Shown: piece by piece, positions 1 through 49,804 of the stretch
How the letters are laid out: every line of letters begins with the position of its first letter
Position numbering within the stretch: the first letter of the stretch is position 1
Source: a virus
Virus record (IMG/VR): IMGVR_UViG_3300009285_000012
Length of the DNA: 49,804 nt
Reading direction: 5' to 3' (one strand)
Translations under genes and position numbers: made by a program
The notes under the pieces: generated by a model
The model's input: only the letters and a program-made list of their open reading frames with translations
Told to the model about the DNA's origin: nothing
Databases searched by the model: none

Positions 1-77
1 TGAAATCAGTCATTTTGGTGCTCCTAGTTGGGTTGATTGGTGGGGCGTTAGATTTGATTGAAGAGCTCAAGGGCTCC
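1..77. repeat. Terminal overlap, identical to 49728..49804 (circular-assembly signature)
   Basis: The 77-nt string TGAAATCAGTCATTTTGGTG...GAGCTCAAGGGCTCC occurs at both window ends. Genes read through the junction coherently. Confidence 0.9.
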
Positions 78-33209: not shown

Positions 33210-36131
33210 ATGGCACTTTCCTGGGATTCCTTTGACACTCCTGATATAGCAATAGCTCCCTCTGCAGCTCCTACATACTCTAAGCCAGAAGACTACTATT
33301 CTTTGATTGATGAAGTAGCTGGGGTAGAGGGAGTTGATCCACTAGTTCTTAGGAGTATGGTAGATGTAGAGAGTTCCTACAATCCTAAGGCCATTTCCTC
33401 AAGAGGTGCTCAAGGTCTGCTTCAGCTAATGCCAGGGACTGCTAAGGAGATGGGAGTGGTAGATCCTTTCGATCCGAGGCAGAATCTAACTGGAGGAGCT
33501 AAATATCTAAAGCAACAACTGACTGCCCAGGGTGGAGACCTTAGTAAAGCATTGGCTGCTTATAATTGGGGTCCAGGGAATTTGGCCACGGGTGGAGAGT
33601 TGCCTCAGGAGACTTTAAGTTACATTAACAAGATTATGGCCCGGAGTGGTGGGGGGGATGCTTCATTAATTAATGATACAAAGCAACCTCTCTCTAGTGA
33701 TCAATCCTTATCTTGGAAAGATACTGCTAAGCTTGGCTGGGATGATTTTGAATCTCAGGCCTCTCCTAGCACACTTTCTAAAGTGCTTGGGGTCATTGGA
33801 GATGCTGGGGATGTTACTGGGGGGACTCTTGCTGATGCAGTCAACATACAGGATCAGTTGACTCCAGCCATTAAAGAGTCATTCTTAGAGAGTGCTACTC
33901 CTACTAGCCCTATGGGAGAACTTCCCCTAGGTTTAGGTAAGGGTCCAAGCGGTGTGACTGGTGCTGCCCTCGACGTAGCTTATGGAGTTCCAGAAGCAGC
34001 AGCTTCTCTTGCATCAGGAGTAGGATCTTTTATCGGAGGCCAGACTGCAGGACTCAAAGATATTCCCCTAACTGAAGAGGGGATGGCCAGAGCTTTTGAA
34101 ACAGCTGAGGCTGTGAGCAAAGTTGGAACTTATCAGCCGAAGACTGCTACTGGACAACTCTTGATGAAACCTATTGAGTTGACCTTTGGCACCCTCCTCG
34201 GTACAGTTGATAAGATGGCAAGGGCCACAGCCCCTGAGGGGGCCTCTCCTGAGGCATTGGATGATCGTAGTAAAGCGTGGCAGTATGTTACTAATTCTCT
34301 CCTCTTAGGGGGACCTCTTGCAGTTAAAGGTGCTAAGAGTATTCGTCTAACTCCCACAGAGGCTAAGGCTAAATTAACTCCTAAGATTGTAGAGGAGGCT
34401 AAGGCCCAGGTTATGGCTGATCCTACTACTCCTCCTACAGTCAAGGAGCAAGTAAAAGATGTCACTGCAGAAGGGTTGGCTCAGATTATTGGTCAGATAG
34501 ATAGGGCTAGAGCTAATGCAGCTGTGGCCAAGAAAGGCCTAGTGGCTAAGTTCCCTGAGAATCAGGATATAGTTACAGGCCTTCTAGTAGAGGCTGAGCT
34601 TAGGGAGGGTAAGGGAAAGGCCCAGTATAATAAGGTGGCCAAGATTGTTGCTGAGCATCCGGAGTCTGTAGAGACTCTTGATTTGGCAGCTACTAAGGGG
34701 ATTGGTCCGAAGACTAAGTCTAAAATTGAGGAGTTGATTAAGCAGAAAAAGGACTTAAAGGAGAAACTACTTCAGCCTATTAAATCTTCTATTCCTGTAG
34801 ATAGGACTCAGTATTCAGGCCCGACAGTTATTGGAAAGACTGCTGAACCTTCATCAGTTACACCACCTAAAGAGCCTATTAAAACTAGTGGAGATGTAGA
34901 TCCTTACAAGACTGGAGAACTTCGCCCGAGTGAAGTTAATGCTCTAGACCTTCCCCCATCTCCACCTCTGCCTGGGCATGTAAAAATAGGAGAAGATCTC
35001 TATCCTAATGTTAAGGCTTCAGGACCTACAGTTATTGGAGAGTTAGGAAAGGCTCCTGAATCTCTATCACCAGTGGCTACTGAGACTCCTAAGGCTGAAA
35101 CAAAGAGCACTGATGTGCTGACTCCTTCAGAGCCAATAGAACTTCCTACATTTGACAGTATTCAGATTGCTAAAGAGGAGGGGTACTCATTCTCAAGTAA
35201 GAGAACTTTCGTCACCTTGGAGGATGCCCAAGCCTCAGCAGAAAAGAGAGGTCCTGGACATGAGGTGATTCAGGTGGGAGAGAGATTCAGGGTGGGGAAG
35301 TTTACTACTACTGAGATCAGAGAGTTTTCTACACTGGAGGCAGTTAAGGCTGAGTTGGAAGTAGGGTCTGAGATTAGTAGGGATCAGGCCCTGGCTGATG
35401 AGGGCGGGAAGTTAGGTAAGATTGAGTTTGGAGTTGCTAAGGTTGGGGATAAGTATTATAGAACTACTTCCAAAATTGAAAGGCCTAATGAGTTGGCTGA
35501 TGTGGCTCAGTTGGAGAGGGGAGAGAAGGAGGCTGCAAAGCAGAAGGCTATTGATGAGTTGTTTGAAGAAGAGGGATTGTCTATTGAGGAGAAGGTAATT
35601 CTGGAGGGGATGGAGAAGGAATTTGGGCGGTTAGATGGGGATGCCAGGTCTGGGATTAGTGAAGCTGTGAGGAAGGATAAGGAAGTTCAATCTTCTGGGC
35701 CTGCAGTGAGTAGTGCCGAAGCTGCTAAGAAGTTCTTAGAGTGGAGAGATTCCTATGTTAATTTAATTAACAAAGCAAAGCCTTCCAAGAAAGGTAAGAC
35801 TAAGAAGCCTGTCCCCAAAGAAACACTACCAATCCTGAATGATGAATTCGCTACATTCAAGACTCTGGAGGATGCCCAGAAGTTTAAGGAATCCACTGGG
35901 AAGTCAGGCGAGATTATCCAAGACCCTCTGACAAAACAATTTATGATTGAGCCAGAGCTTGATCTTCCTATGGATAAGATAGACTTCTATGATGAAGCAG
36001 TGAGAGATTATGAGGGGGAGAGTAGGAGTGGGAGGTTTGATGAGGAGGGTGTAGATTATGGTGAGAGGTCTTCGGAGAATGGGATTATGAGGGGGAGAGT
36101 AGGAGTGGGAGGTTTGATGAGGAGGGTGTAG
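33210..36131 (+). CDS. internal virion/ejection protein with N-terminal lytic transglycosylase (SLT) domain, apparently truncated by the 77-nt duplication
   Basis: VESSYNPKAISSRGAQGLLQLMPGTAKEMG...GGAKYL...AAYNWGPGN. Internal repeats (SGPTVIG x2, F.TLEDAQ x2). Carries two motif copies. Confidence 0.85.
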   Translation: MALSWDSFDTPDIAIAPSAAPTYSKPEDYYSLIDEVAGVEGVDPLVLRSMVDVESSYNPKAISSRGAQGLLQLMPGTAKEMGVVDPFDPRQNLTGGAKYLKQQLTAQGGDLSKALAAYNWGPGNLATGGELPQETLSYINKIMARSGGGDASLINDTKQPLSSDQSLSWKDTAKLGWDDFESQASPSTLSKVLGVIGDAGDVTGGTLADAVNIQDQLTPAIKESFLESATPTSPMGELPLGLGKGPSGVTGAALDVAYGVPEAAASLASGVGSFIGGQTAGLKDIPLTEEGMARAFETAEAVSKVGTYQPKTATGQLLMKPIELTFGTLLGTVDKMARATAPEGASPEALDDRSKAWQYVTNSLLLGGPLAVKGAKSIRLTPTEAKAKLTPKIVEEAKAQVMADPTTPPTVKEQVKDVTAEGLAQIIGQIDRARANAAVAKKGLVAKFPENQDIVTGLLVEAELREGKGKAQYNKVAKIVAEHPESVETLDLAATKGIGPKTKSKIEELIKQKKDLKEKLLQPIKSSIPVDRTQYSGPTVIGKTAEPSSVTPPKEPIKTSGDVDPYKTGELRPSEVNALDLPPSPPLPGHVKIGEDLYPNVKASGPTVIGELGKAPESLSPVATETPKAETKSTDVLTPSEPIELPTFDSIQIAKEEGYSFSSKRTFVTLEDAQASAEKRGPGHEVIQVGERFRVGKFTTTEIREFSTLEAVKAELEVGSEISRDQALADEGGKLGKIEFGVAKVGDKYYRTTSKIERPNELADVAQLERGEKEAAKQKAIDELFEEEGLSIEEKVILEGMEKEFGRLDGDARSGISEAVRKDKEVQSSGPAVSSAEAAKKFLEWRDSYVNLINKAKPSKKGKTKKPVPKETLPILNDEFATFKTLEDAQKFKESTGKSGEIIQDPLTKQFMIEPELDLPMDKIDFYDEAVRDYEGESRSGRFDEEGVDYGERSSENGIMRGRVGVGGLMRRV
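33659..33685. repeat. Palindromic-motif copy inside CDS 33210..36131 (degenerate arms)
   Basis: TGCTTCATTAATTAATGATACAAAGCA, encoding DASLINDTKQ. Confidence 0.6.
35751..35777. repeat. Palindromic-motif copy inside CDS 33210..36131 (B+B type)
   Basis: TCCTATGTTAATTTAATTAACAAAGCA, encoding SYVNLINKA. Confidence 0.6.
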
Positions 36132-36159
36132 ATTATGGTGAGAGGTCTTCGGAGAATGG
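36006..36159 (+). repeat. Exact tandem duplication, 2 x 77 nt
   Basis: 36006..36082 equals 36083..36159 (GATTATGAGGGGGAGAGTAGG...CGGAGAATGG). 77 is not a multiple of 3, so the reading frame shifts. Confidence 0.95.
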
Positions 36160-36175
36160 TAGAAATCTTTGGGAC

Positions 36176-38494
36176 TTGATGAATAATGAGAGGGGGTCCA
36201 TAGATGTCACAGGGCTTCGTGGGACGATGGACTCCATTGAGTATATAGTCAGGGCTGCTAAGAAAGCAGGTAAGACTGTTGATCAGTGGCTGGATATGCT
36301 TGGAGTAGATCCTGCTAACATAGCACTCTTCAAGGGAAGCTTGGCTAACTTGGGCCAGTTAAAACAGGAGATAAGAGATAAGGATCCGTTAGGATCTAAG
36401 ATCTTAATGCCTGAAGGTAAGACGGTTACTCAGAGGTTTCATCGTAATAAGGCAGGTAAGGTAGAGTGGTCTACTCCTCCAATTACAGAGAGTATGGCCA
36501 ATGCTATATTCAATGCAGACAGGACTAAGCAGTGGGGAAAGGATCTAGTTAGAATTGATGAGAAGGGGAATGTCAGGGTAGAGCATACTACCGCTTGGTT
36601 TGATAGGGCGATGCAAGCTACAGAGACTAAGATTAATGCATTCCATGGACCTCTTAAGGATCTTTATAGGACTTGGAGGGATGCCTCTAAGTTGGCCATA
36701 GATGATGCTCTTGAGGTAGAGAAGTGGGCCAAATCCTTAAGGGATCAAATTGCTCCTGAGAGGAGAGATGCAGTCTTTGTAGCAGCATGGAAAGATATGA
36801 AGGGAGCTGAGGAGGCTTTTAAGGCTATGGGGATTGATACTATTGAGGCATTAACTCCCCAGGAAACTGCTATAGTTAAACAGTTGAAAGATTTCACCAG
36901 AGATTTTAGACTTAGATCTAACTACACTAGGACTCATACAGGTCAGAAGGCCATTCCTAAGTTGCTTGACTTGAATGGTGATGAGAACTATCTGCCTATG
37001 TTTAGGAAGTTGAATGTTCTTAAGGAGATGGGAGTTACTGAAGGGATGGTGATCTCAGATAATGTCAAACTTGGGGAGTTGAGTAAGACCTTCACAGGAA
37101 TGTTCAATCCTCATGCTAAGAAACGGCATGCTGCAGATATTCCCATAGAACTTGATCCATTCGAGGCAGTGATTAAGTATGCTAGGACAGGATTTAGGGA
37201 GATTCACATCAGCCCAGTTGCAGCCTTAGCAAAGGAGCTAGCAAATTCTAGAATTCCACATCCTACTAAGCTGACTAAGAAGGGGACTCAGGCCAGGGTT
37301 AAACTGAGTGATTGGAATCCCTCGCTGAGTAATATGCTTAGTAGATGGTCTGACTCAATTGTGGGGAAGGATCCCTCTGCTACAGTTCTTGCTAACAGCA
37401 ATCCCTTTATATATAAGGGTCAACAGTTTATTACTAAGAACTTAGTGGTGGCAGCAATTGGGGGGAGTATTAGGACCTTTGCTGTGCAGCCTTCATCATA
37501 TATGATTCAAGTCCCTACTCTATTAGATATGAGAGCTACTACTTATGGCCTCTTCAAACTTATGAGTGAGAGACCCTTTAAGGGAGATGCAACTCGTGCT
37601 CATCAAACGTCCTCTGTATTGACAATTAGATCACCTGAGTTGGTTTATTCTGAGATTAGTCAGGCTCTCCAGGATGGGCTGTTCAAAGGGGGGCAGAAGA
37701 TTGCTGCTGATATTTCTCTTAAGCCTATGAAGTGGATGGATTCTCTGGTGGCTGAGGCCACGTGGAATGCTGGCTATGAATATGGGCAGAGGGTGTTGAA
37801 GTTGAAGGGGGAAGATTTAGTTCACTTTGCAGATGATGCTGTAGAGAGGACTCAAGGTCTAGGGATTAAAGGTGCAGTTAGTGATATTCAGACTGGGACT
37901 TATACTAAGTGGCTCACCCTGCTTCAAACGTTCGGAATTAATGACTGGAATTTTATTATTAGAGATGTCATGGGAGTTAAGAATGCTGACGTGAGTAATA
38001 AGCAAGTGTTAGGAAGGGCAGTTAAGTATGTTGTTACTACGGTCCTTACAGGGCAACTCTATAAAGCTATAGGGTATGAGAATGTTGTACCTGATCCTAT
38101 TGGAGAATATCTGAAAGCTAAAGATGAAGGTAAGGGAGATGTTAGGGCAGTAGCTATTGCTGCTGGTGAGCTGCTTGAGAAGGTCCCAATAGTTGGAGGG
38201 AGTGCTAAGTTTGGGTCTAACCTTGGAGGGATGGTAGGGGAGTGGGGAGACCTACTGCCAGAGGCCGTTGGAAAGTTCTCAGAATCTCTTGATTGGGATA
38301 AGCTAACTTCTAGAGCCAGAAGGAAGAATATGATGTTGATTGGGAAAGCTATTGGATACACGATGGGGATTCCCTTCACTAACCAGATTATGAAGTCAAT
38401 TAATGCTGCATATAATGGAGGGAATCCCTATGATGTGATTATGGGAGTTTATGTGGAGTATAAGAATAAGGGAGGTGGGGTTCCCTCCCTTTAG
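36176..38494 (+). CDS. internal virion/ejection protein, probable C-terminal part of the 33210 ORF
   Basis: Its frame is open from 36065 and re-encodes DYEGESRSGRFDEEGVDYGERSSENG from repeat copy 2. Removing one repeat copy joins it in frame to 33210..36131. Confidence 0.6.
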   Translation: MMNNERGSIDVTGLRGTMDSIEYIVRAAKKAGKTVDQWLDMLGVDPANIALFKGSLANLGQLKQEIRDKDPLGSKILMPEGKTVTQRFHRNKAGKVEWSTPPITESMANAIFNADRTKQWGKDLVRIDEKGNVRVEHTTAWFDRAMQATETKINAFHGPLKDLYRTWRDASKLAIDDALEVEKWAKSLRDQIAPERRDAVFVAAWKDMKGAEEAFKAMGIDTIEALTPQETAIVKQLKDFTRDFRLRSNYTRTHTGQKAIPKLLDLNGDENYLPMFRKLNVLKEMGVTEGMVISDNVKLGELSKTFTGMFNPHAKKRHAADIPIELDPFEAVIKYARTGFREIHISPVAALAKELANSRIPHPTKLTKKGTQARVKLSDWNPSLSNMLSRWSDSIVGKDPSATVLANSNPFIYKGQQFITKNLVVAAIGGSIRTFAVQPSSYMIQVPTLLDMRATTYGLFKLMSERPFKGDATRAHQTSSVLTIRSPELVYSEISQALQDGLFKGGQKIAADISLKPMKWMDSLVAEATWNAGYEYGQRVLKLKGEDLVHFADDAVERTQGLGIKGAVSDIQTGTYTKWLTLLQTFGINDWNFIIRDVMGVKNADVSNKQVLGRAVKYVVTTVLTGQLYKAIGYENVVPDPIGEYLKAKDEGKGDVRAVAIAAGELLEKVPIVGGSAKFGSNLGGMVGEWGDLLPEAVGKFSESLDWDKLTSRARRKNMMLIGKAIGYTMGIPFTNQIMKSINAAYNGGNPYDVIMGVYVEYKNKGGGVPSL
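38470..38492. terminator. Hairpin at the convergence point of the two arms (bidirectional terminator candidate)
   Basis: GGGAGG-N8-CCTCCC followed by TTT. Overlaps the last codons of 36176..38494, and 38497..38814 ends 3 nt away on the other strand. Confidence 0.45.
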
Positions 38495-38496
38495 TT

Positions 38497-38814
38497 CTAT
38501 AGTTCAAATAGTCCCTTGATGAAGGTTCTTCTGAGGGAATTGCCATCTGAGAGGCTCTGCAATTTGTGAGACAGTTTTACGCAGTCTTGGAGGAATTGCA
38601 GGGCCTCTTTGTTATCTTTGAGGGACATTCCTAGTTTGAAGCCCTCAAGTTTTTCTGTCCAGATTTTGTGATCACTCATCTCCTCTCCTCCTGAGATATC
38701 ATTCTCCAGGTAGTAGTAGCAGACTTCAGAATTATGATTGAGAATGTCCATCATATCTGAAGAATGAGGTTTATCACACATCAGTAAATGGAGCAGATCT
38801 ACAAGCTGTTTCAT
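38497..38814 (-). CDS. hypothetical protein (105 aa)
   Basis: Last gene of the leftward arm. Confidence 0.5.
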   Translation of the reverse strand: MKQLVDLLHLLMCDKPHSSDMMDILNHNSEVCYYYLENDISGGEEMSDHKIWTEKLEGFKLGMSLKDNKEALQFLQDCVKLSHKLQSLSDGNSLRRTFIKGLFEL

Positions 38815-39092
38815 ATAATCCCCTCCATGCTTAAATATTCATCTAAAAACTTCTTTGCTTTTTCACATCTCTCAAAAGCCTCATCTCTATAATCAGTATA
38901 TTCTATTTTATCAGTATCTAAAACCGCTATAGGATCTGGCTTTAAAATTCTATATACCTTTTCGAGTATTTCTTGAAGTTTATACATCTCTGTATAAGCT
39001 TCTTGTAAATAAGGAAGTGGATTCTCTTTAACTCTTAATTCGTATGAGATTACTAGAGTATGTAACCTAGCCATCTTTTCTAAGTAACTCAT
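38811..39092 (-). CDS. hypothetical protein (93 aa), AT-rich
   Basis: 4-nt overlaps on both sides. Confidence 0.5.
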   Translation of the reverse strand: MSYLEKMARLHTLVISYELRVKENPLPYLQEAYTEMYKLQEILEKVYRILKPDPIAVLDTDKIEYTDYRDEAFERCEKAKKFLDEYLSMEGII

Positions 39093-40288
39093 ATCATACC
39101 CCCTGCACGATGATAGCGGAGAATTGTTTCATTTCCCCTCTCTATCCTATTGACAAAGCCCATGCTCTCCAGAGTTTGGATGATTAGATCCATTACACGA
39201 GCATCAGCGTCATGATAGAATTTACGCTGAAGATCACGGATGGAGATTTCGCCAGCCATCCCTATCTCATTCATCACCTTACTCAGGACTTCAGCATGTT
39301 GAGATTTGCCCATACCTGAGAAGGTCTTAGGCATGTTGATTTCAGTCTGTTCGATGATGTCTATGGAGCGCTGAAGATCCCTCGACGTGACTATCATGTT
39401 ATCCGTGCGACAGGCATTAAGGATGAGGGATAGTTTCATCACGTGAACCACACGGCGCTCACAATAGGGAGCCAGGTGAGGATCATTGAATGGAGGATGT
39501 TTGTCATTCTTATTATAGAATTCTACCCAAAGGTCTATGAAGTCTTTAGAAGCCTTGAACTGCCCTTTGAGGAGATGGATTTCCTCCAAGTCGTGGTAAA
39601 GATCTTCACCAATTACTTCCTCGGAAGCGTTGAGGAAAGGGATGGGGCAGGATTGGAACTTATCAGGTTCATATACGAAGATAATCCTACTTGTTAACCC
39701 TCCTCCGATGGCATCCATACTTAGAGAGGATCGCAGTAAGTCTGGAGTAGTTGCTCCTATCATGTTGACCCAAATACCTACTATGTCATCAGTCCCCTGG
39801 TGTTTAGTACGGTAGGTCCACAAACCCTCTGGACCCCTACCACAGTCAAACCAGTCAGTAAGATCCATCATCAGTTGTTGCTGGTTGTAACCTAGGAAGA
39901 CTACCAATTCAGGGGCAAAGACAGTGAGGGAGGAGTGGAAAGACATGATGCCTGTTTCTGCATCTATCTCAGTAGTTTGGGCCTCCTTGATTGCCCTAAC
40001 CAGAGCTTCCCTAGTTGTGGACTCAGCACTGAGGGGGATTTCAAGACGGGTTAAGAAGTCAGCAGAATAGGACATTGCTGTACCCTTGCGTGCTCTACCT
40101 GCTGGGCCAACTAAGACTATGTACATATTAGGGAAGAATCGTAGTTTGCCCCATCTCATGATGCACTTTCTCTGGAGAGCCGCGGCCACTGTGGAGATGG
40201 CAGTCCAGATGTGATATAGTTTTGGAGGTTCAGAATTGGAAGTGTAGACCATGTAGGAGTCTAACCAGTCTTCAAGCTTACGGCTCAT
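39089..40288 (-). CDS. replication protein, DUF3987/P4-type helicase-like guess (degenerate P-loop)
   Basis: 399 aa. VLVGPAGRARKGTAMS and an IIFVYEPD-type Walker-B-like strand. Sits in the replication module. Family assignment is weak. Confidence 0.35.
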   Translation of the reverse strand: MSRKLEDWLDSYMVYTSNSEPPKLYHIWTAISTVAAALQRKCIMRWGKLRFFPNMYIVLVGPAGRARKGTAMSYSADFLTRLEIPLSAESTTREALVRAIKEAQTTEIDAETGIMSFHSSLTVFAPELVVFLGYNQQQLMMDLTDWFDCGRGPEGLWTYRTKHQGTDDIVGIWVNMIGATTPDLLRSSLSMDAIGGGLTSRIIFVYEPDKFQSCPIPFLNASEEVIGEDLYHDLEEIHLLKGQFKASKDFIDLWVEFYNKNDKHPPFNDPHLAPYCERRVVHVMKLSLILNACRTDNMIVTSRDLQRSIDIIEQTEINMPKTFSGMGKSQHAEVLSKVMNEIGMAGEISIRDLQRKFYHDADARVMDLIIQTLESMGFVNRIERGNETILRYHRAGGMI

Positions 40289-40718
40289 ATAAGACTCCTA
40301 CGTTTTCTACATTTGCCATTCTATACATATCAGCAGCAAGAGTTAGAGAATCTCCCCATCTTTTCCATAATTCTGCTGAAGGCATAGGAGCAACTACTCT
40401 TATAATTCCACACTGAATGATCTTTGCAGCACAGCGAGAGCAAGGAGGGAAGGGTTGAGTGTAGATAGTACATCCTTCAAGAGATTGCTGAGCGAAGAGG
40501 AGAGCATTGTCCTCGGCATGAAGGATCATCTCGTACTTGAGTTCTCTATTGTTGAGATTATCATGAGAGTCGTGAACTCCTCTAGCGAATCCATTAAAAC
40601 CTAGGCTGATGATCCTATTGCCTTTAGTAATAACCGCTCCACATTTGGTTGAGGGATCTTTAGACCAGGTGCTGATTAGAAGGGCCATATCTAGAAATCT
40701 CTTATCCCATTTATTCAT
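40278..40718 (-). CDS. dCMP deaminase
   Basis: Zinc motifs HAEDNAL and PCSRCAAKII. Start ATG 40718 (GGGAG 9 nt upstream). Confidence 0.85.
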   Translation of the reverse strand: MNKWDKRFLDMALLISTWSKDPSTKCGAVITKGNRIISLGFNGFARGVHDSHDNLNNRELKYEMILHAEDNALLFAQQSLEGCTIYTQPFPPCSRCAAKIIQCGIIRVVAPMPSAELWKRWGDSLTLAADMYRMANVENVGVLYEP

Positions 40719-40896
40719 CTTCTTCATCTCCCACAGGGACTGGATTAGATACTTTGAGTTGACCAATCTTACTGAGGAATTCAATCAACTTTGCTTTGGC
40801 CTCGATCATTAGGCAGACTTCCTCTGGGCAATCTGCTTTCCAATCTGTATTATAGATAAGCCAGCGTACAGTTCCAGCTGCTTCTAAAGGTGTCAT
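40711..40896 (-). CDS. hypothetical protein (61 aa)
   Basis: AAGGAG SD. A motif copy lies 14 nt upstream. Confidence 0.5.
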   Translation of the reverse strand: MTPLEAAGTVRWLIYNTDWKADCPEEVCLMIEAKAKLIEFLSKIGQLKVSNPVPVGDEEDE

Positions 40897-40910
40897 TAGA
40901 AATCTCCTTA

Positions 40911-40937
40911 TTGCTTTGTTAATTTATGATACATAGC
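40911..40937. promoter_or_regulatory. Palindromic-motif copy abutting the PolA stop codon
   Basis: TTGCTTTGTTAATTTATGATACATAGC. 40910..40940 is identical to 5824..5854. Confidence 0.85.
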
Positions 40938-40938
40938 A

Positions 40939-43476
40939 TTACACAATGGTAGGAAGCCATCTGTCGGTACATTCATAATACTTTTGTTCAAGATATTCAG
41001 GTTCAAATGAATTAATATCTAAAGAACATGAGGATCTGTTTGCCTTCTTTATAGTTTTTCCATCTACAGTCTCCCATCCCTCTTCTTTATTTAAACACAC
41101 GCCCATTGTACAATCTACTGGGATTACAAAACGATGTCCGTAATGGGTATAAAGTGGAGTTTCAAGACTCCTTCGGATGTCAGTGAGTACTCGACTGTGA
41201 TCTGCCCATGAGACAGGAGTTGTTGGATGCAGTGGGGTGGGGATTTGGAATCCGATTTGATCGTGCACTTGAATGCAGAGTTTAACGAAGCGGAAGTGAT
41301 CATCTCGGTTGTAGTAGACAAAGTTGAGTCCTCGCTCATCGATGATATCTCCAACTGTTCCCTGAGGGATGCAGGCATAGGCATCCTTGTAAAGCTGGTC
41401 GTCAATTTTGTCTGTGAATACAGTCTTTCGATCCAACAAGTTGGTGATTGTCCTGTTCTTATTGATGCACATTTTGACATATGAGTGGAATCCATCTCTA
41501 ACTCCTGGGTATGCTTTGTGATAGATGTCGACAATGACTTTGCCGTCTCTGTCGGTGATTTCATTATATAGGGAGAAGGTCTTATAGCCAAGGTCATAGT
41601 TAAGGCCATGATTAGCTTTCTTGCCCCAATCTCGCCAGGTCTTTTTCCCGTCGCCTATGGGAGCTTTAACTATCTTGGGATTGAAATCCTCTGGGAGTTT
41701 ACCTTGATAGAAGATGTTAGCCATGATACGTGCGGTGAGTCCATGGATATCCATCTTCATCTCAAATGCGTTGATCATCTCAGTAATGCGTCCTACATAG
41801 GCGACTATCCTATTCTCAGCCTGACTTAAGTCCATTCCGTAGAACACGTGGAAGGGGTCTGCCAAGAAGTGTGTAAGAACCCGATGGGGTTGATTCTGAA
41901 GATTGTTACCTGTCCCGAATATATTTTCGCTGCTTGAAGCCCTTGAGAATCGAGTACCGACAGGGTTGTATGAACATCGCATTCTTCCATCATTGTCAAC
42001 TTTAGCAGTGTCGAGAAAAGTGGCTCGCTCCTTACTAAGGCCGCGTATTTTAAGGATAAGCGAGGCCTCTGGGTAACCTTTGCGGGCAATTCGTTTGAGT
42101 GCCTTTTCATCAGTTGTGTCTCCCCCCTCCCTATTTTTATACGCGGGAAGGCGTTTGGTCTTGTAGAAGTAAGTGGCAACTTGTTTCGGAGAGTTGGGAT
42201 TAAGATCAAAGCCACACTTCTGATGCAATTCTTTGAGAGTGTCTTCAATCTCATGGCCCAACTCATCTGAGGCCTGTTGCATGGAACCAGTGTTGATACG
42301 AATTCCGTTTTCCATGATGTAGACGTAGGGAAGGATAGACTTTCTCTTCCTCTCATAAGCATAGTAGTTGTGCTGCTTAAATAGGGATTCCATCTGCTTG
42401 GGGTAGGCATCGCTACAGACCACTGAGTCTAGAGCATTATATCTCCACCCACCATCCCAGCTCCCTATACCTTTAAGCCAATACTTACCATCATCCTTAT
42501 AATAAGGTATATCAGTATAAAGAGAGCAAATGAAATGCAGTCCAACAGGATAGTCTGGAAGTAAGGTCTTTTGCGCAACCATCGTATCATGGATGTTAGT
42601 AGTTTTGATTCCATATTTTCGAAGCATGTAGTGGCAATCGAATACCAGGTTCTGTCCCAGGATTGGGATTTCAGGATCTTCGAGGATCTTAGCAATTTCA
42701 ACCAGGATGGCGGCCTCCTGAGGGAGGGTGAAGTAGTCTCCACCTTCTCCTACGAAGGGGATACTGATTACTTCGGTAGGAGAGTAAGCAAAGGAGATGC
42801 AAGTCATCTCACCGTTGAAAACGTCTACCTCGATATCATAGGCAATGGGATTACCTAACTTGCCGTACAACTTACAGATGTTCAAGAAATTGAGGGATTG
42901 AGAGTAAGTGGGCCGGATGACTATGTGGCGATCTAGAGGATTCCATTTACCCTCAACTACTTTCCTAGCTCTGAGGAGATCATATATGAGGAGACGCTTA
43001 TTAGTGTACTGGTTCTTTGGAGGGATGATCGTACTTGGATGGATAGAAGGGATTAGTTTCTTCCCACTAACCAGAGTAGGACTAAGCACAGAACCCCTCC
43101 AACGAGTGACCCCAGTGCGATCGGCCAGAGCAAACAGTGCAGTGTTGCCGAGAGCGATGATAACTTTTCCTTCAAGCTCATTGATTTCTTTAGCAAGTTC
43201 ATTTATATACTCCTGGCCTAAGGTTGAGATTACAGGACCTTTCCTGGGGTTGAACTCAATATAGGCCCCTAGGACTCTGTCTGCATCTTTTATGACATTG
43301 GTATAGTACACATCCGCTCTGTTGATCCCTGCGATACGGAGGTTATCTTCAAACTCCATACCTGCAGGGCCACAGAATGGGCGTCCCTTGATTATTTCAG
43401 TTCTGCCTGGTTGCTCACCTACCACAATGTAGGGAGCATCTTTTCTACCACATGGCGCCACGTAGGTTGATCTCAT
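40939..43476 (-). CDS. family A DNA polymerase with N-terminal family-4 UDG-like domain and 3'-5' exonuclease domain
   Basis: UDG motifs GEQPG and HPS. Exo motifs IAYDIEVD, NLVFDCHY and YNALDS. Pol motifs A DLSQAENRIVAY, B KKANHGLNYDLGY and C IQVHDQ. Confidence 0.9.
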   Translation of the reverse strand: MRSTYVAPCGRKDAPYIVVGEQPGRTEIIKGRPFCGPAGMEFEDNLRIAGINRADVYYTNVIKDADRVLGAYIEFNPRKGPVISTLGQEYINELAKEINELEGKVIIALGNTALFALADRTGVTRWRGSVLSPTLVSGKKLIPSIHPSTIIPPKNQYTNKRLLIYDLLRARKVVEGKWNPLDRHIVIRPTYSQSLNFLNICKLYGKLGNPIAYDIEVDVFNGEMTCISFAYSPTEVISIPFVGEGGDYFTLPQEAAILVEIAKILEDPEIPILGQNLVFDCHYMLRKYGIKTTNIHDTMVAQKTLLPDYPVGLHFICSLYTDIPYYKDDGKYWLKGIGSWDGGWRYNALDSVVCSDAYPKQMESLFKQHNYYAYERKRKSILPYVYIMENGIRINTGSMQQASDELGHEIEDTLKELHQKCGFDLNPNSPKQVATYFYKTKRLPAYKNREGGDTTDEKALKRIARKGYPEASLILKIRGLSKERATFLDTAKVDNDGRMRCSYNPVGTRFSRASSSENIFGTGNNLQNQPHRVLTHFLADPFHVFYGMDLSQAENRIVAYVGRITEMINAFEMKMDIHGLTARIMANIFYQGKLPEDFNPKIVKAPIGDGKKTWRDWGKKANHGLNYDLGYKTFSLYNEITDRDGKVIVDIYHKAYPGVRDGFHSYVKMCINKNRTITNLLDRKTVFTDKIDDQLYKDAYACIPQGTVGDIIDERGLNFVYYNRDDHFRFVKLCIQVHDQIGFQIPTPLHPTTPVSWADHSRVLTDIRRSLETPLYTHYGHRFVIPVDCTMGVCLNKEEGWETVDGKTIKKANRSSCSLDINSFEPEYLEQKYYECTDRWLPTIV

Positions 43477-43637
43477 CTTTTCTTAACCTCTTTCCATTCA
43501 TATTTAGAATCAGTTCCATGTCCATAAGATCCAACGCATCGTGTCTTATTATACTTATGAGATTCTACAGTATGCTCTGCCATAAACATTCTGACACGTT
43601 TCTTACATATCGGACATGTAGTCATTTTGATCCACAT
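43473..43637 (-). CDS. small CxxC protein (54 aa), not in the ORF track
   Basis: AGGAG (inside the motif) lies 7 nt before ATG 43637. ATGA overlap with the PolA start. My translation is MWIKMTTCPICKKRVRMFMAEHTVESHKYNKTRCVGSYGHGTDSKYEWKEVKKR. Confidence 0.5.
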   Translation of the reverse strand: MWIKMTTCPICKKRVRMFMAEHTVESHKYNKTRCVGSYGHGTDSKYEWKEVKKR

Positions 43638-43645
43638 AAAATTAC

Positions 43646-43672
43646 TCCTATGTTAATTAATGACACGTAGCA
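43646..43672. promoter_or_regulatory. Palindromic-motif copy
   Basis: TCCTATGTTAATTAATGACACGTAGCA. 8 nt upstream of ATG 43637 (minus). Confidence 0.8.
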
Positions 43673-43676
43673 GGCC

Positions 43677-43934
43677 CTAATCGCTGAGGCGATCACTCAG
43701 CATCTGAGCATAATGGGCAATCTTCATCAAGTCCAGTTGGTCTTGGTCAGGCCTGGAATTACGCCCGAAACGATTAGCGTATTTTCGGATCTGAGTGATG
43801 AAGTCCTGGGGGGTGAACTCTGTACATTGATCCTGGCCCTTGTCTCCATATTGAGGAACAGTGTAAGATTCAATATGTATCAAGACATTATTAGAGAATT
43901 TTACCCATTCTCTGGCACGTATAGATATAGTCAT
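43677..43934 (-). CDS. hypothetical protein (85 aa)
   Basis: Its 3' end carries the ATCGCCTCAGCGATTAG hairpin element. Confidence 0.5.
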   Translation of the reverse strand: MTISIRAREWVKFSNNVLIHIESYTVPQYGDKGQDQCTEFTPQDFITQIRKYANRFGRNSRPDQDQLDLMKIAHYAQMLSDRLSD

Positions 43935-44533
43935 TACATTATCCCCCTACTTCGAAGTTCAAAGAAACATTCCATAGTACCTCGGACATCAACCAGGGCA
44001 TCATGAGCCCCTTCGAAGGGCTTGTTGAAGAGGATCTTGTAGAGTTCTTCCAGTTTGGGAAACTTATTCCCTTTCTTGCCGGAGGGAAATGGAAGATGGC
44101 AGAACTCAATAGTAGATTTCATAGTGCAATAGTATGGCATTTCCAAAATGTCTGCCATATCTATCTCTGCACTCTCCCCTACCTGGGCCGCGAGGATTCG
44201 CATCAGGCGGATGTCAAAATTGAAGTTATGACAACAGAGGGCCTCAGCATCTTCGGTGAGGGAGAAGAAAGCATTGAAGGCATCTTTGGGTTCTATGCCC
44301 TTAGAGTTAGCTTTTTCACTGGTGATACCGTGAGCAGCCAAGGCCTTAGGATGGATTGGTTTGTCTCCAATTTTGATTAGAGTTTGGTAAGCTTCTAATT
44401 CCTCACCTTCAGAGGTTGCCAGAATACAGCCCAGTTGGAGAACTTTAGGCTGAGAGGGATCGGCAGAGCGGGCCTTAAAATTAGGGAGGCCAGTTGTCTC
44501 AGTGTCGAAAAAGAGGATAGTGTTAGTTGACAT
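43934..44533 (-). CDS. DnaQ-like (DEDDh) 3'-5' exonuclease
   Basis: Exo I FFDTETTGL, Exo II CCHNFNFD, Exo III HDALVD. Start ATG 44533 with GGAG SD. Confidence 0.85.
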   Translation of the reverse strand: MSTNTILFFDTETTGLPNFKARSADPSQPKVLQLGCILATSEGEELEAYQTLIKIGDKPIHPKALAAHGITSEKANSKGIEPKDAFNAFFSLTEDAEALCCHNFNFDIRLMRILAAQVGESAEIDMADILEMPYYCTMKSTIEFCHLPFPSGKKGNKFPKLEELYKILFNKPFEGAHDALVDVRGTMECFFELRSRGIM

Positions 44534-45875
44534 TTTGAGTCTCCAGGTAAGATTTAAGTTGAACAATGTAGCCTTCTTTGAATTCACGAGTAAGATCATT
44601 ACCGAATGAGGATACTTGACAGGTGTGAGAGGCCATTAGACTAACTCCAGAGCCAAGGAAAGGGATGTAAGCTTGTTGGCCAGGTCTGCAGAAAGTACTG
44701 AAGAGTTCCACCATCAGAGGGAGGGGGCGCTGAGTTGGGTGAATCTTCTGGGATGGGGGCATAGGAGTGAATTCAAATACGTTGGCCCGCCCTGCCTTGT
44801 TGAACTTAGGCTGGCCCTTACGGCAATAGAAGAAAGGCTCATAGCAGTTGGCGAATTGGGATTCGGGTTGCATCGTCTGGCCATTAGGTTTGAGCCACAT
44901 TCCGGGAAGTGTGTTCATTTTGAATCCAGTCCCCTTGAGCCACTCACTGATGGGGAAGAACCAGGGGTCCATAGCGAACCAGCAGACTAACCAAGAGTCC
45001 GGGCGGAGGATACGATAGCATTCTGAGAAAAGCTTTACCATAAACTCTGCATACTCTTTTACTTCGATCTCATTATAGCCTAGCATTACAGAGTCAGCCT
45101 TCTTGGAGTGCAGGTCCATTGCATAAGGTGGGTCTATTTCAATGAAGTCCATAGTGTTGTTGGGCATCTGGGAGAGGGTCTTAAAGCAGTCCCCCACTAT
45201 GTAAGCATCATAGAGGCGCTTGAAGATTTTGTTAGTAGTGCCCATTTCCTTGGTAAACTGTTCTGACTTTACGGAGTTGGTTAGTTGGCGACCAATGGAG
45301 TTAAGCATCTTCAGTGCATCGGACTTGTTCTTGCACTTGTCCAAGCCGATCTCTGGGAATTGTTCCATAGCTGATGCAAGCTTCAGATCTTTGGAGAGAT
45401 TAGCTGGGGTCTCTTGCAAGAGGCGAGCCGTATCAGCTTGGGACCATCCTAAGGCGTCAGGAGCTTTAGAGTGCTTAGGCCCATGGATTTCAATCTGCAG
45501 ATCATTTATCTGCTTTTTGAGGGAAATCTCCTCGACATAACTCATTTCCTTTCTATCGAGATTCTCTGCCAGCTCTATGGATCGATAGTCAAGTTCCGTA
45601 AGTGGTTGGTCATATACCTTGGCCGGCACAGTCATCCAGCCCATCTCAGTGATAGCAGCCATGCGACGGCCCCCAGCTAGGAGGGTGTACTTCTTGTCAC
45701 CTTTCTGATTGATCTTGAGAGACTCTGTTAGACCTACAGCAATTGGAGTGATGAGGCCATTCTTAGTGATAGAGTATTTGAATTGCTTCAAGTCTCCATA
45801 ATCCTTACGGAATCTCTCTCCTATGTCAATATCTGAGAGGAGGATGTGAAGGAGTTGGGATGTGTCTACTTTCAT
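44523..45875 (-). CDS. ParB-N domain + HTH + N6/N4 DNA methyltransferase fusion
   Basis: ParB box LLAGGRRMAAI. ParB-type HTH GWSQADTARLLQETPANLSKDLKLA. MTase motif IV IEIDPPY followed by motif I PFLGSG (beta-class order). Confidence 0.85.
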   Translation of the reverse strand: MKVDTSQLLHILLSDIDIGERFRKDYGDLKQFKYSITKNGLITPIAVGLTESLKINQKGDKKYTLLAGGRRMAAITEMGWMTVPAKVYDQPLTELDYRSIELAENLDRKEMSYVEEISLKKQINDLQIEIHGPKHSKAPDALGWSQADTARLLQETPANLSKDLKLASAMEQFPEIGLDKCKNKSDALKMLNSIGRQLTNSVKSEQFTKEMGTTNKIFKRLYDAYIVGDCFKTLSQMPNNTMDFIEIDPPYAMDLHSKKADSVMLGYNEIEVKEYAEFMVKLFSECYRILRPDSWLVCWFAMDPWFFPISEWLKGTGFKMNTLPGMWLKPNGQTMQPESQFANCYEPFFYCRKGQPKFNKAGRANVFEFTPMPPSQKIHPTQRPLPLMVELFSTFCRPGQQAYIPFLGSGVSLMASHTCQVSSFGNDLTREFKEGYIVQLKSYLETQNVN

Positions 45876-46126
45876 AAAATCATTCCTTTGATTAGTTCTG
45901 CGGCTAGAGCCGCTTTTTGCTCAGCCGTGAGGGACTGGGCATGTTTGAAAAGGTCTTGTTGCTTGAGGTTCTTAGGGTTAGCCTTCCTTGCCACTTTGGC
46001 AGGGGTAGATTTTTGACGTGGTAGAGGTTTGAGTCTCCTCTGAGCCCTAATAGCACTGAGGTGCTGATAGAGCTGGGGCCTCGTCATTTGGGTTATCGAT
46101 CTGTTTAGGGAGTAGATTGTTGCCAT
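45872..46126 (-). CDS. small basic protein (start uncertain)
   Basis: Arg/Lys-rich. Overlaps 46047..46289. An alternative start is ATG 46087. Confidence 0.4.
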   Translation of the reverse strand: MATIYSLNRSITQMTRPQLYQHLSAIRAQRRLKPLPRQKSTPAKVARKANPKNLKQQDLFKHAQSLTAEQKAALAAELIKGMIL

Positions 46127-46289
46127 CTTCGAGCTTTCTCCAGAGTTTAGGTTCAGTCCTTAGTGCTTCCTCAGCACAAGACTTGTGGAATTTACGTTTG
46201 AAGTTGGGGTCGAAGTTGTTAATCAGAGTGGTATAGACCCTGTTCTGATATAGCTTCTTTCCACACTCATAACATAGGACTTGTGGCAT
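46047..46289 (-). CDS. zinc-ribbon-like protein (80 aa)
   Basis: CYEC...H..C pattern. Confidence 0.5.
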   Translation of the reverse strand: MPQVLCYECGKKLYQNRVYTTLINNFDPNFKRKFHKSCAEEALRTEPKLWRKLEDGNNLLPKQIDNPNDEAPALSAPQCY

Positions 46290-46558
46290 TATAGTCTCCT
46301 TGAAACTTCCATTAAGATTCCATCTCTAAGACCTTTATTACCACAGTTGTGAGTACTGGTAAAGATATCTTCAGAGAGATCAAGATATATAGAAATATTG
46401 TAAATATCTACTCTATTTGCAGGAGTGTTATCAACACCAGCACCCATTTGAATCCTAAGGAAATTATCTATAATTCCTTTAGGATTTTTAGCATTTCCTG
46501 TAACTTCGAATGCTCCATCTTTAATGTTGTAAGTTACAGTAACTTCTATGTCATGCAT
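46289..46558 (-). CDS. hypothetical protein (89 aa), AT-rich
   Basis: ATG 46558 with GGAG SD, 1 nt after the upstream stop. Confidence 0.5.
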   Translation of the reverse strand: MHDIEVTVTYNIKDGAFEVTGNAKNPKGIIDNFLRIQMGAGVDNTPANRVDIYNISIYLDLSEDIFTSTHNCGNKGLRDGILMEVSRRL

Positions 46559-46559
46559 A

Positions 46560-46808
46560 TTATGTCTCCGAAATTGCTTTATGAGTGTAAGGTTGACCAG
46601 CTTCAGCCAATTGTACCACGTTGATGTGGCCACTAATGATGGCTCCGATGGCATTAAATCCTCCCTTGGCATGTAAGGCGATGATGCCGTCTACGATGGC
46701 TTGAAAGAGGAGGATCTTAGTCCCATGAGGGAGAATCTGTTGTAACTTGAGTTGCTGATCCTCCCTCAAGTCGACTATTAGTCTGGGGCGGTAGTCTGAG
46801 ATGTTCAT
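46560..46808 (-). CDS. ribbon-helix-helix-like DNA-binding protein (82 aa)
   Basis: RPRLIVDLREDQQLKLQQILPHGTKILLFQAIVDGIIAL fits a strand-helix-turn-helix RHH pattern. ATG 46808 lies 1 nt after the ThyX stop. Confidence 0.45.
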   Translation of the reverse strand: MNISDYRPRLIVDLREDQQLKLQQILPHGTKILLFQAIVDGIIALHAKGGFNAIGAIISGHINVVQLAEAGQPYTHKAISET

Positions 46809-46809
46809 G

Positions 46810-47481
46810 CTAGGCTCCATCCGTAGTAGGAGAGATGGGGAGGAGGCCAGCCTCAATGATAGCCTCAGTTTCGTCGATCAGATCTTCAAAGACTGAAGGG
46901 GCGTGACCCATGAGAATCCTCCAGATGTCCAGAGCAATAGGGCGAATTTGAGGATGGGCAGCCTTGCTGTGGCGCAAGGAGATAAAGTGGCGAAACTCTC
47001 GGAAGTTAGCAGTCATCACTAACTCAGTCTTCAGACAGGTGGGAAGAACTGAACGGGCAATCTGAGGAGAGGCCCCTGCGTCTAACATATCAAGATACTC
47101 AAGTTCAGCATATCTGCAACTATCTTCCCAGAACTCTAAAACTTTATCATCATCTATGGGAGGTTGGATAACACTGATCTCATTACCCATCTTGTAAGTA
47201 CCATAGTTACAGTACCGGGTGGACTCCTGAGCATAAGAGGCTAGACGATGGCGAACTATTTCGTGAGATATACCACGGTCACAGACTATGCGAAACGATG
47301 CACAAGCATGTTCCAGCATAGCATGATGGCCAGAGGTACGGAGCTTCTTGCAGAAGTTTCTGGCACTGGTTTTAGTAATCTTGTCCTCCGATTTGTAGCA
47401 TGTCCTACCTGCAGCTTCAATGTGAATTTCAGGGTCAGGGGTGATCCAGAGGAGGGTGACGGATGGGGATACGATTTTCAT
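46810..47481 (-). CDS. thyX: flavin-dependent thymidylate synthase ThyX
   Basis: ThyX signature RHRLASYAQESTR (RHRxxSxxxxSxR). 223 aa. Confidence 0.9.
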   Translation of the reverse strand: MKIVSPSVTLLWITPDPEIHIEAAGRTCYKSEDKITKTSARNFCKKLRTSGHHAMLEHACASFRIVCDRGISHEIVRHRLASYAQESTRYCNYGTYKMGNEISVIQPPIDDDKVLEFWEDSCRYAELEYLDMLDAGASPQIARSVLPTCLKTELVMTANFREFRHFISLRHSKAAHPQIRPIALDIWRILMGHAPSVFEDLIDETEAIIEAGLLPISPTTDGA

Positions 47482-49272: not shown

Positions 49273-49740
49273 TTAGAATTTATCAAACTCTTCACCACTT
49301 GCAGGCCCGGTGATGAACTTGGAGATCTCGTTCTGTTCGCCATAGGCCTCTGATGAGACTATTTTGAGAAGTGCCCATCCCTCAAGACCTACCATAGCAT
49401 TGAAGTTGAGCTCGGACATGCCAAAGGCACGCTTGAAGCAGTCCAGGTCCCACTTGATGGAGTTGACACGTTTGGGCTCCATGTCGGGAGTTGGGACAGA
49501 GAAGACTCGACTCAGGCCTTTGGAGAACTCTTCGTCAGGGATATCGAAGGTAACTATGAAATACTTGTTGCCCTTATCAGACATGCGAACAATCTTGCCA
49601 TTAGTGTCCTTGCGGAAGCCAGTAATTCGGACTTTGTACTCGCCTGCTTCTACACAAGTAGGTTCCTTGGAGTCAGAGGTGTCGATGTCCAGGATGGATT
49701 CGGTGTCTTCGTTGCTCAGGTCGTCGATGAAATCAGTCAT
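49273..49740 (-). CDS. ssDNA-binding protein candidate (T7 gp2.5-like)
   Basis: 155 aa. ATG 49740 with AGGAG SD. Acidic C-terminal tail ending in Phe (GEEFDKF). Sits in the ATPase/nuclease module. Family assignment is weak. Confidence 0.4.
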   Translation of the reverse strand: MTDFIDDLSNEDTESILDIDTSDSKEPTCVEAGEYKVRITGFRKDTNGKIVRMSDKGNKYFIVTFDIPDEEFSKGLSRVFSVPTPDMEPKRVNSIKWDLDCFKRAFGMSELNFNAMVGLEGWALLKIVSSEAYGEQNEISKFITGPASGEEFDKF

Positions 49741-49804
49741 TTTGGTGCTCCTAGTTGGGTTGATTGGTGGGGCGTTAGATTTGATTGAAGAGCTCAAGGG
49801 CTCC
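49728..49804. repeat. Terminal overlap, identical to 1..77
   Basis: Exact 77-nt identity with the window start. Confidence 0.9.

Follow-up and report, generated by a model that had tools for sequence, protein, structure and literature searches.

Identical 77-bp contig ends have been described as a by-product of SPAdes assembly for phage genomes that are circularly permuted (PMC9409062). The locus analyzed here resembles such k-length terminal overlaps in that its copies are exact, their length is a standard SPAdes k and a 77-nt terminal overlap is present on the same contig; it differs in that a second k-length copy is internal, where it coincides with a strain-bubble node and disrupts a gene. 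A literature search found no description of an internal k-length duplication as a recognized assembler artefact. The broken gene is comparable to T7 gp16 in that its giant product exceeds 1,300 aa, has an SLT domain at the extreme N terminus and is encoded at the end of the structural module; however, the major capsid protein of this phage is of the SU10 type, not T7-like, and the likeness shown is one of architecture and genomic position. The other relevant system is that of the polyvalent proteins (PMC5512222). These are likewise giant multidomain proteins of the virion module, and members of the family studied here join a transglycosylase with ART-PolyVal or GGDEF, whereas the allele in our sequence has SLT as its only recognizable domain, the cargo domain being present only in a co-occurring allele (allele B).

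The window, i.e., the whole stretch of DNA that was analyzed (IMG/VR record IMGVR_UViG_3300009285_000012, 49,804 nt), has the gene order TerL, portal, SU10-type major capsid protein and tail proteins, followed by the giant SLT gene as the last gene of the structural module. It is followed by a leftward replication module encoding a family A DNA polymerase with a UDG domain, ThyX, dCMP deaminase and a ParB-methyltransferase. No cultured phage matched the locus at the DNA level in a blastn search of 50,697 records.

The 77-nt repeat and the split reading frame

Positions 36006-36082 and 36083-36159 of the window are exact tandem copies of a 77-mer, designated X (TRF: period 77, 2.0 copies, 100% matches, score 308). 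The identity at period 77 does not extend by a single base into either flank. The junction between the copies reads ...TCTTCGGAGAATGG followed by GATTATGAGGGGGAG..., and the string TCTTCGGAGAATGGGATTATGAGGGGGAG distinguishes the two-copy state from the one-copy state. The only other exact repeat of at least 25 nt within the window is the terminal pair, designated Y, in which bases 1-77 are identical to 49728-49804. An exact 77-nt tandem repeat such as X cannot have arisen by chance. The features of the repeats and of the affected gene are the following:

36006..36082, plus strand: X copy 1, 3' end of the left assembly piece (short allele A), identical to copy 2
36083..36159, plus strand: X copy 2, 5' end of the right assembly piece; independent pieces of L001 and L011 (after 100 N) and the contig L018 begin at X
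1..77, no strand: terminal overlap Y, first copy, an assembler k-length overlap of a circular or circularly permuted genome
49728..49804, no strand: terminal overlap Y, second copy
33210..38494, plus strand: true gene after removal of 77 nt; the merged ORF is stop-free, and P0038 and the homologues P0002-P0010 are single proteins
33210..36131, plus strand: P0001, artefactual truncated product of 973 aa with a 15-aa frameshifted tail, IMRGRVGVGGLMRRV, present on one contig only
36179..38494, plus strand: P0040, artefactual "downstream gene" of 771 aa; a 772-aa version starts from TTG at 36176
35784..36005, plus strand: strain-variable in-frame cassette, short allele A; L002, L016 and L017 have allele B, 648 nt, at this place

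The 973-aa ORF ends at a TAG stop codon (36129-36131) within copy 2 of X, and a second frame, open from 36065 and running to 38494, encodes the same 26 residues, DYEGESRSGRFDEEGVDYGERSSENG, once again. When one copy of X is deleted, the 973-aa and 771/772-aa ORFs merge into a single ORF of 5,208 nt with zero internal stops. The sequence-only reading had described these properties, and they were reproduced: the two identical copies by TRF and by exact matching, the frameshift into the TAG codon and the re-encoded peptide by ORF translation, the single frame by deletion of one copy (1,735 codons and a stop codon), and the equality between the repeat length and the 77-nt terminal overlap by exact comparison of the window ends.

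Copy number of the repeat and the allele boundary in other assemblies

The window is itself a whole contig, since its 973-aa product P0001 is recorded from a single JGI contig of 49,804 nt. Neighboring-gene proteins identical to those of the window are encoded by more than 20 contigs assembled from groundwater metagenomes of the Rifle aquifer, which is also the source of the window. These included MEGAHIT contigs of PRJNA268031, ENA "ANAN16-1" scaffolds, and the JGI C687J... and Ga02... assemblies. Exact scans of the collections viral_contigs and metagenome_contigs with the 3' 35-mer of X gave 0 hits, as neither includes these contigs. Six contigs of the same phage, obtained from other samples or with other assemblers, are contiguous across the locus: L002 (JGI 3300025073, 50,907 nt), L016 (JGI 3300002727), L017 (JGI 3300002093), L012 and L014 (ENA ANAN16 scaffolds), and L020 (a MEGAHIT contig). 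In all six, X is present once and is followed directly by TAGAAATC / TAGAAATCTTTGGG. The single X is preceded by allele B in L002, L016 and L017, and by the upstream context of the window itself (...gaagcagtgaga, then X) in L012, L014 and L020; the upstream match to the window is exact over 60 nt in L012 and L014, and over the 49 nt that L020 contains at this place. It should be noted that the 1,814-aa ORF call of L014 crosses a 25-N scaffold gap approximately 355 nt upstream of X, and only the 432 contiguous nt before X were used as evidence from this scaffold.

Base 1 of X is also precisely where assembled sequence starts in three further pieces. The ENA scaffolds L001 and L011 read ...AAAGCAAAGCCT (corresponding to window position 35783), followed by 100 N and then by X, so that the gaps cover precisely the cassette interval 35784-36005, and the first base of the MEGAHIT contig L018 is the first base of X. 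Because the six contiguous contigs have a single copy and the three pieces begin at X, the window is the sole two-copy assembly among the ten. The terminal sequence Y is present once, contiguously across the junction, in six contigs (L003-L006, L008 and L009).

The start of X coincides with an allele boundary. Up to 35783, and again from X onward, L002 and the window are 100% identical; the stretch in between measures 648 nt in L002 and 222 nt in the window. The 142 extra codons of allele B (+426 nt) encode an ART-PolyVal domain (PF18760, E=1.9e-20). The last 195 nt before X are approximately 92% identical between alleles A and B, with synonymous differences just before X, and, directly preceding X, the window (allele A) has an A and allele B has a G. 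Because this preceding base differs, X is the first 77-mer that is again common to both alleles; therefore, it is a branching/converging node of the assembly graph at k=77. Assembly breaks fall on both sides of the cassette. No strain variant adjoins Y in the loci compared, the nearest ones being at +15, +40, -197 and -313 nt; thus, two edges meeting at two branch nodes are supported for X only.

Origin of the second copy

One of the two copies of X is almost certainly spurious. We estimate a probability of about 0.9 that the second copy is an assembly artefact rather than a biological feature, and that it falsely splits one giant gene. The phages in the aquifer samples have at least two cassette alleles inside the gene for the giant virion protein. 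The segment 36006-36082, as the first shared 77-mer past the cassette, is a branching node of a de Bruijn graph with k=77, and the piece ending at this node and the piece starting there each include the whole of X. If the piece ending in allele A and X was concatenated with the piece that starts at X, with the shared k-mer left untrimmed, and the circular contig was also output with a k-length overlap at its ends, the outcome would be the exact 77+77 tandem repeat together with a shifted frame, and gene callers would report two truncated genes. When SPAdes joins paths or scaffolds with a recorded gap equal to k, the entire next edge is appended, with no Ns. Such a join would produce two adjacent copies of X if the edges had lost their connection at the node before the scaffolder linked them again.

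Three lines of evidence agree with an untrimmed k-mer overlap. The repeat has 100% identity and its period equals the terminal overlap, from which we infer a SPAdes-like assembler whose final k was 77; the two alleles first share a 77-mer again at X, and three other assemblies break at its first base; and two copies are found in none of the six contiguous contigs from independent assemblies. This supports the proposal of the sequence-only reading that an untrimmed k-mer overlap falsely splits a gene of approximately 1,735 codons, since no contiguous contig has the second copy and the homologues are all single proteins. A graph loop resulting from a real shorter repeat was also considered and was rejected: X has no shorter exact period, and, by reasoning, the rotated 77-mers across the junction of the two copies have no other source in either allele.

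An artefact of a different kind would result from rotation after assembly, i.e., a circular contig with X at both ends was re-opened elsewhere without trimming, and its old ends are now internal. This would account for the adjacent copies of X and for their exact k length, yet rotation alone leaves no fresh 77-nt overlap Y at the new ends, and a second step that re-adds 77 nt would be required; we consider it improbable. The re-circularization artefact suggested in the sequence-only reading therefore stands as far as the artefact is concerned, but simple re-circularization does not, because the contig retains its own 77-nt terminal overlap elsewhere. Since rotation is also an artefact, the biological conclusion would stay the same.

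Conversely, the phages of this one sample could carry a genuine tandem duplication of 77 nt that shifts the frame and yields an N-terminal fragment of about 105 kDa and perhaps a C-terminal fragment of about 85 kDa. The duplication is present in the sequence as deposited, tandem duplications do occur in phage genomes, and the region is a low-complexity acidic linker the length of which varies among homologues. However, such a duplication would need exactly the length of the terminal overlap and would need to begin right after the last allele-specific SNP, at the very base where three other assemblies break, and it is absent from all six other contigs. In addition, it would destroy a reading frame that is kept in every relative and would leave the C-terminal half without a ribosome-binding site; a genuine duplication is, accordingly, very improbable. 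The two proteins reported by gene callers, P0001 and P0040, speak for a true pair of genes or for programmed recoding at the locus, but two genes are found in no relative, the second ORF lacks translation signals, and the overlap encodes the same 26 aa again, a mark of duplication rather than of recoding; this explanation is scarcely credible. Specifically, we detected no Shine-Dalgarno-like motif upstream of P0040, compared to 18 of the 23 other genes checked in which such a motif was found.

The giant protein and its cassettes

The true gene encodes a single giant protein of 1,735 aa, a predicted virion component, with an N-terminal lytic transglycosylase. P0038, encoded by L002, is a single ORF of 1,877 aa that has one copy of the peptide repeated in the window (DYEGES...SSENG) and is identical to the merged protein outside the cassette region. 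Comparison with homologous ejection-protein genes, which the sequence-only reading had proposed as a check, gave the same picture: the nine distant homologues P0002-P0010 (33-57% identity, 1,653-2,259 aa) all continue through the junction as single proteins, and no relative has two proteins. One of them, P0005, is a single ORF of 1,662 aa on at least three independent contigs; the 973-aa P0001 is on record from just one contig. In alignment A1, the one-copy sequence continues through the junction along the conserved stretch DYGERxxGxGRDLWDIMNNERGS, with no space for a second copy. Residues R959, W962, R969, G970 and S971 are invariant in this alignment; E54 and S55 are nearly invariant, in agreement with an N-terminal transglycosylase that has a catalytic Glu. 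The domain and the two motif copies discussed below are located as follows:

33306..33590, plus strand: SLT lytic transglycosylase domain, aa 33-127 (Pfam PF01464, E=5e-22)
35751..35778, no strand: 28-nt palindromic motif, degenerate copy inside the gene; its end is 5 nt short of the cassette boundary
33658..33685, plus strand: second in-gene copy of the 28-nt palindromic motif, ending 9 nt upstream of a 252-nt in-frame insertion (L013, L014)

For the window allele, SLT is the only Pfam domain above threshold, a match to HHH_8 being sub-threshold. PDB profile hits to T7 gp16 (7eyb_I, 6yt5_G) and to bacterial Slt/Mlt enzymes cover the SLT domain only: profile positions 21-135 match T7 gp16 residues 7-128, and positions 8-168 of the PHROG 342 profile match aa 22-174. 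Outside SLT, to which the hits to 7eyb_I, 6yt5_G and PHROG 342 are confined, no homology to T7 gp16 was detected. Thus, the comparison to T7 gp16 made in the sequence-only reading is valid for the N-terminal transglycosylase, the giant size and the place in the structural module, but sequence similarity ends after the SLT domain. By analogy, the giant protein probably travels inside the virion and cuts peptidoglycan after its release during infection.

Other members of the family combine SLT with additional domains, namely ART-PolyVal in allele B (P0038) and GGDEF in the relative P0007. Both domain types are found in proteins predicted to be injected with DNA (Iyer et al. 2017, PMC5512222), and the concept of polyvalent proteins described there, in which a giant polypeptide encoded with virion genes has at least two unrelated effector or enzymatic domains, agrees with allele B (SLT and ART-PolyVal) and with P0007 (SLT and GGDEF); the window allele shows SLT alone above threshold.

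A second cassette, with 252 additional nt after 33694 that encode an 84-aa domain, is present in L013 and L014; this insert has no match to a Pfam family. Separately, we observed a 28-nt palindromic motif, TTGCTATGTTAATTAATGATACATAGCA, with a spacer of 11 nt, that occurs at 15 sites genome-wide when up to 6 mismatches are allowed, compared to 0 in ten shuffles. The 13 sites outside the giant gene mostly look intergenic, judging from the ORF list. The two degenerate copies within the gene are kept in diverged alleles, with an in-frame cassette polymorphism starting 5-9 nt downstream of each. In a relative with 49% protein identity, a related palindrome is intergenic, and none within the threshold is found in the giant gene. 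It is possible, if rather doubtful, that the giant gene is a hot spot at which in-frame cassettes are swapped between coexisting strains, and that the motif may serve both as a recombination or insertion signal and as a regulatory site, somewhat as in the PeSL cassettes of T4-type phages.

The split gene is a known kind of gene that is cut by an assembly artefact. The artefact adds 154 nt to the genome (77 internal and 77 terminal), the true circular size of which is approximately 49,650 nt, and, because of it, a protein of 1,735 aa is already represented by two truncated entries in public protein collections, where the 973-aa fragment P0001 is the representative of its 90% identity cluster. 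The main value of these results is in data hygiene: an internal exact tandem repeat with a unit equal to the terminal overlap of the contig can be flagged automatically. Biologically, the break point reveals a real cargo cassette that varies among strains and belongs to a giant virion protein of an uncultivated podovirus from the aquifer.

Fragments of the giant gene in assemblies and protein collections

The artefactual 973-aa fragment P0001 (window 33210-36131), i.e., the upstream product of the assembly break in the giant gene, is the representative of its own 90%-identity cluster in a public collection of 15 billion proteins. This cluster also includes "proteins" of 771 aa and 695 aa, both of which result from the same assembly break as P0001 or from scaffold gaps. 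Two independent ENA scaffolds of the same phage, L001 (49,733 nt) and L011 (49,583 nt), each have one end at window 33993, inside the giant gene, suggesting an additional assembly break point at this position.

36179-38494, ORF downstream of the assembly break

The dispersed palindrome and the replication module

A 28-nt palindromic motif, TTGCTATGTTAATTAATGATACATAGCA, composed of 8-bp arms and an 11-nt AT-rich spacer, was found at 15 sites in the window at no more than 6 mismatches, compared to none in ten shuffles. Judged by the ORF list, the majority of the sites look intergenic; examples are those that follow the TerL and major capsid genes and those that flank the DNA polymerase gene on either side. 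A related palindrome, TTGCTTTGTTACATAATGTAACATAGGA, is located between genes in the relative L023. The motif might serve as a promoter or operator, or form a stem-loop. For the replication module, the Pfam assignments were read from genes of identical sequence in L001 and in L002, another contig of the phage.

3310, 5825, 9822, 11371, 12222, 13539, 17465, 23894, 25665, 40911, 43645 and 49236, 28-nt motif sites outside the giant gene
33658-33685 and 35751-35778, degenerate motif copies inside the coding sequence of the giant gene
40939-43476 (-), family A DNA polymerase with a fused UDG-like domain
38497-47481, replication-module neighbours: ParB_N/N6_N4 methyltransferase, ThyX, dCMP deaminase and RNase T-like exonuclease

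Cassettes and cargo domains of the giant virion protein

Both in-gene motif copies are kept in diverged alleles, and a strain-specific in-frame cassette begins 5-9 nt downstream of the end of each copy; these copies and cassette sites may represent a recombination or insertion hot spot.

Between 33694 and 33708, in-frame cassette of +252 nt in L013/L014, encoding an 84-aa insert with no Pfam match
After 35783, ART-PolyVal cassette in L002/L016/L017

A helix-hairpin-helix match, HHH_8 (PF14716), at aa 451-513 of the giant protein (window 34560-34748) is sub-threshold, at 23.2 bits versus the Pfam cut-off of 30 bits; in the homologue P0002, the same domain scores 35.4 bits, over the cut-off. This hints that the virion protein has a DNA-binding module. 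Further large inserts, without a Pfam match, are present in P0002 and in another distant homologue, P0003. ART-PolyVal (PF18760) is found in a co-occurring strain (L002 12575-13222), as allele B of window 35784-36005, and GGDEF (PF00990) in P0007, a relative that is 58% identical. The giant virion protein bears exchangeable cargo domains.
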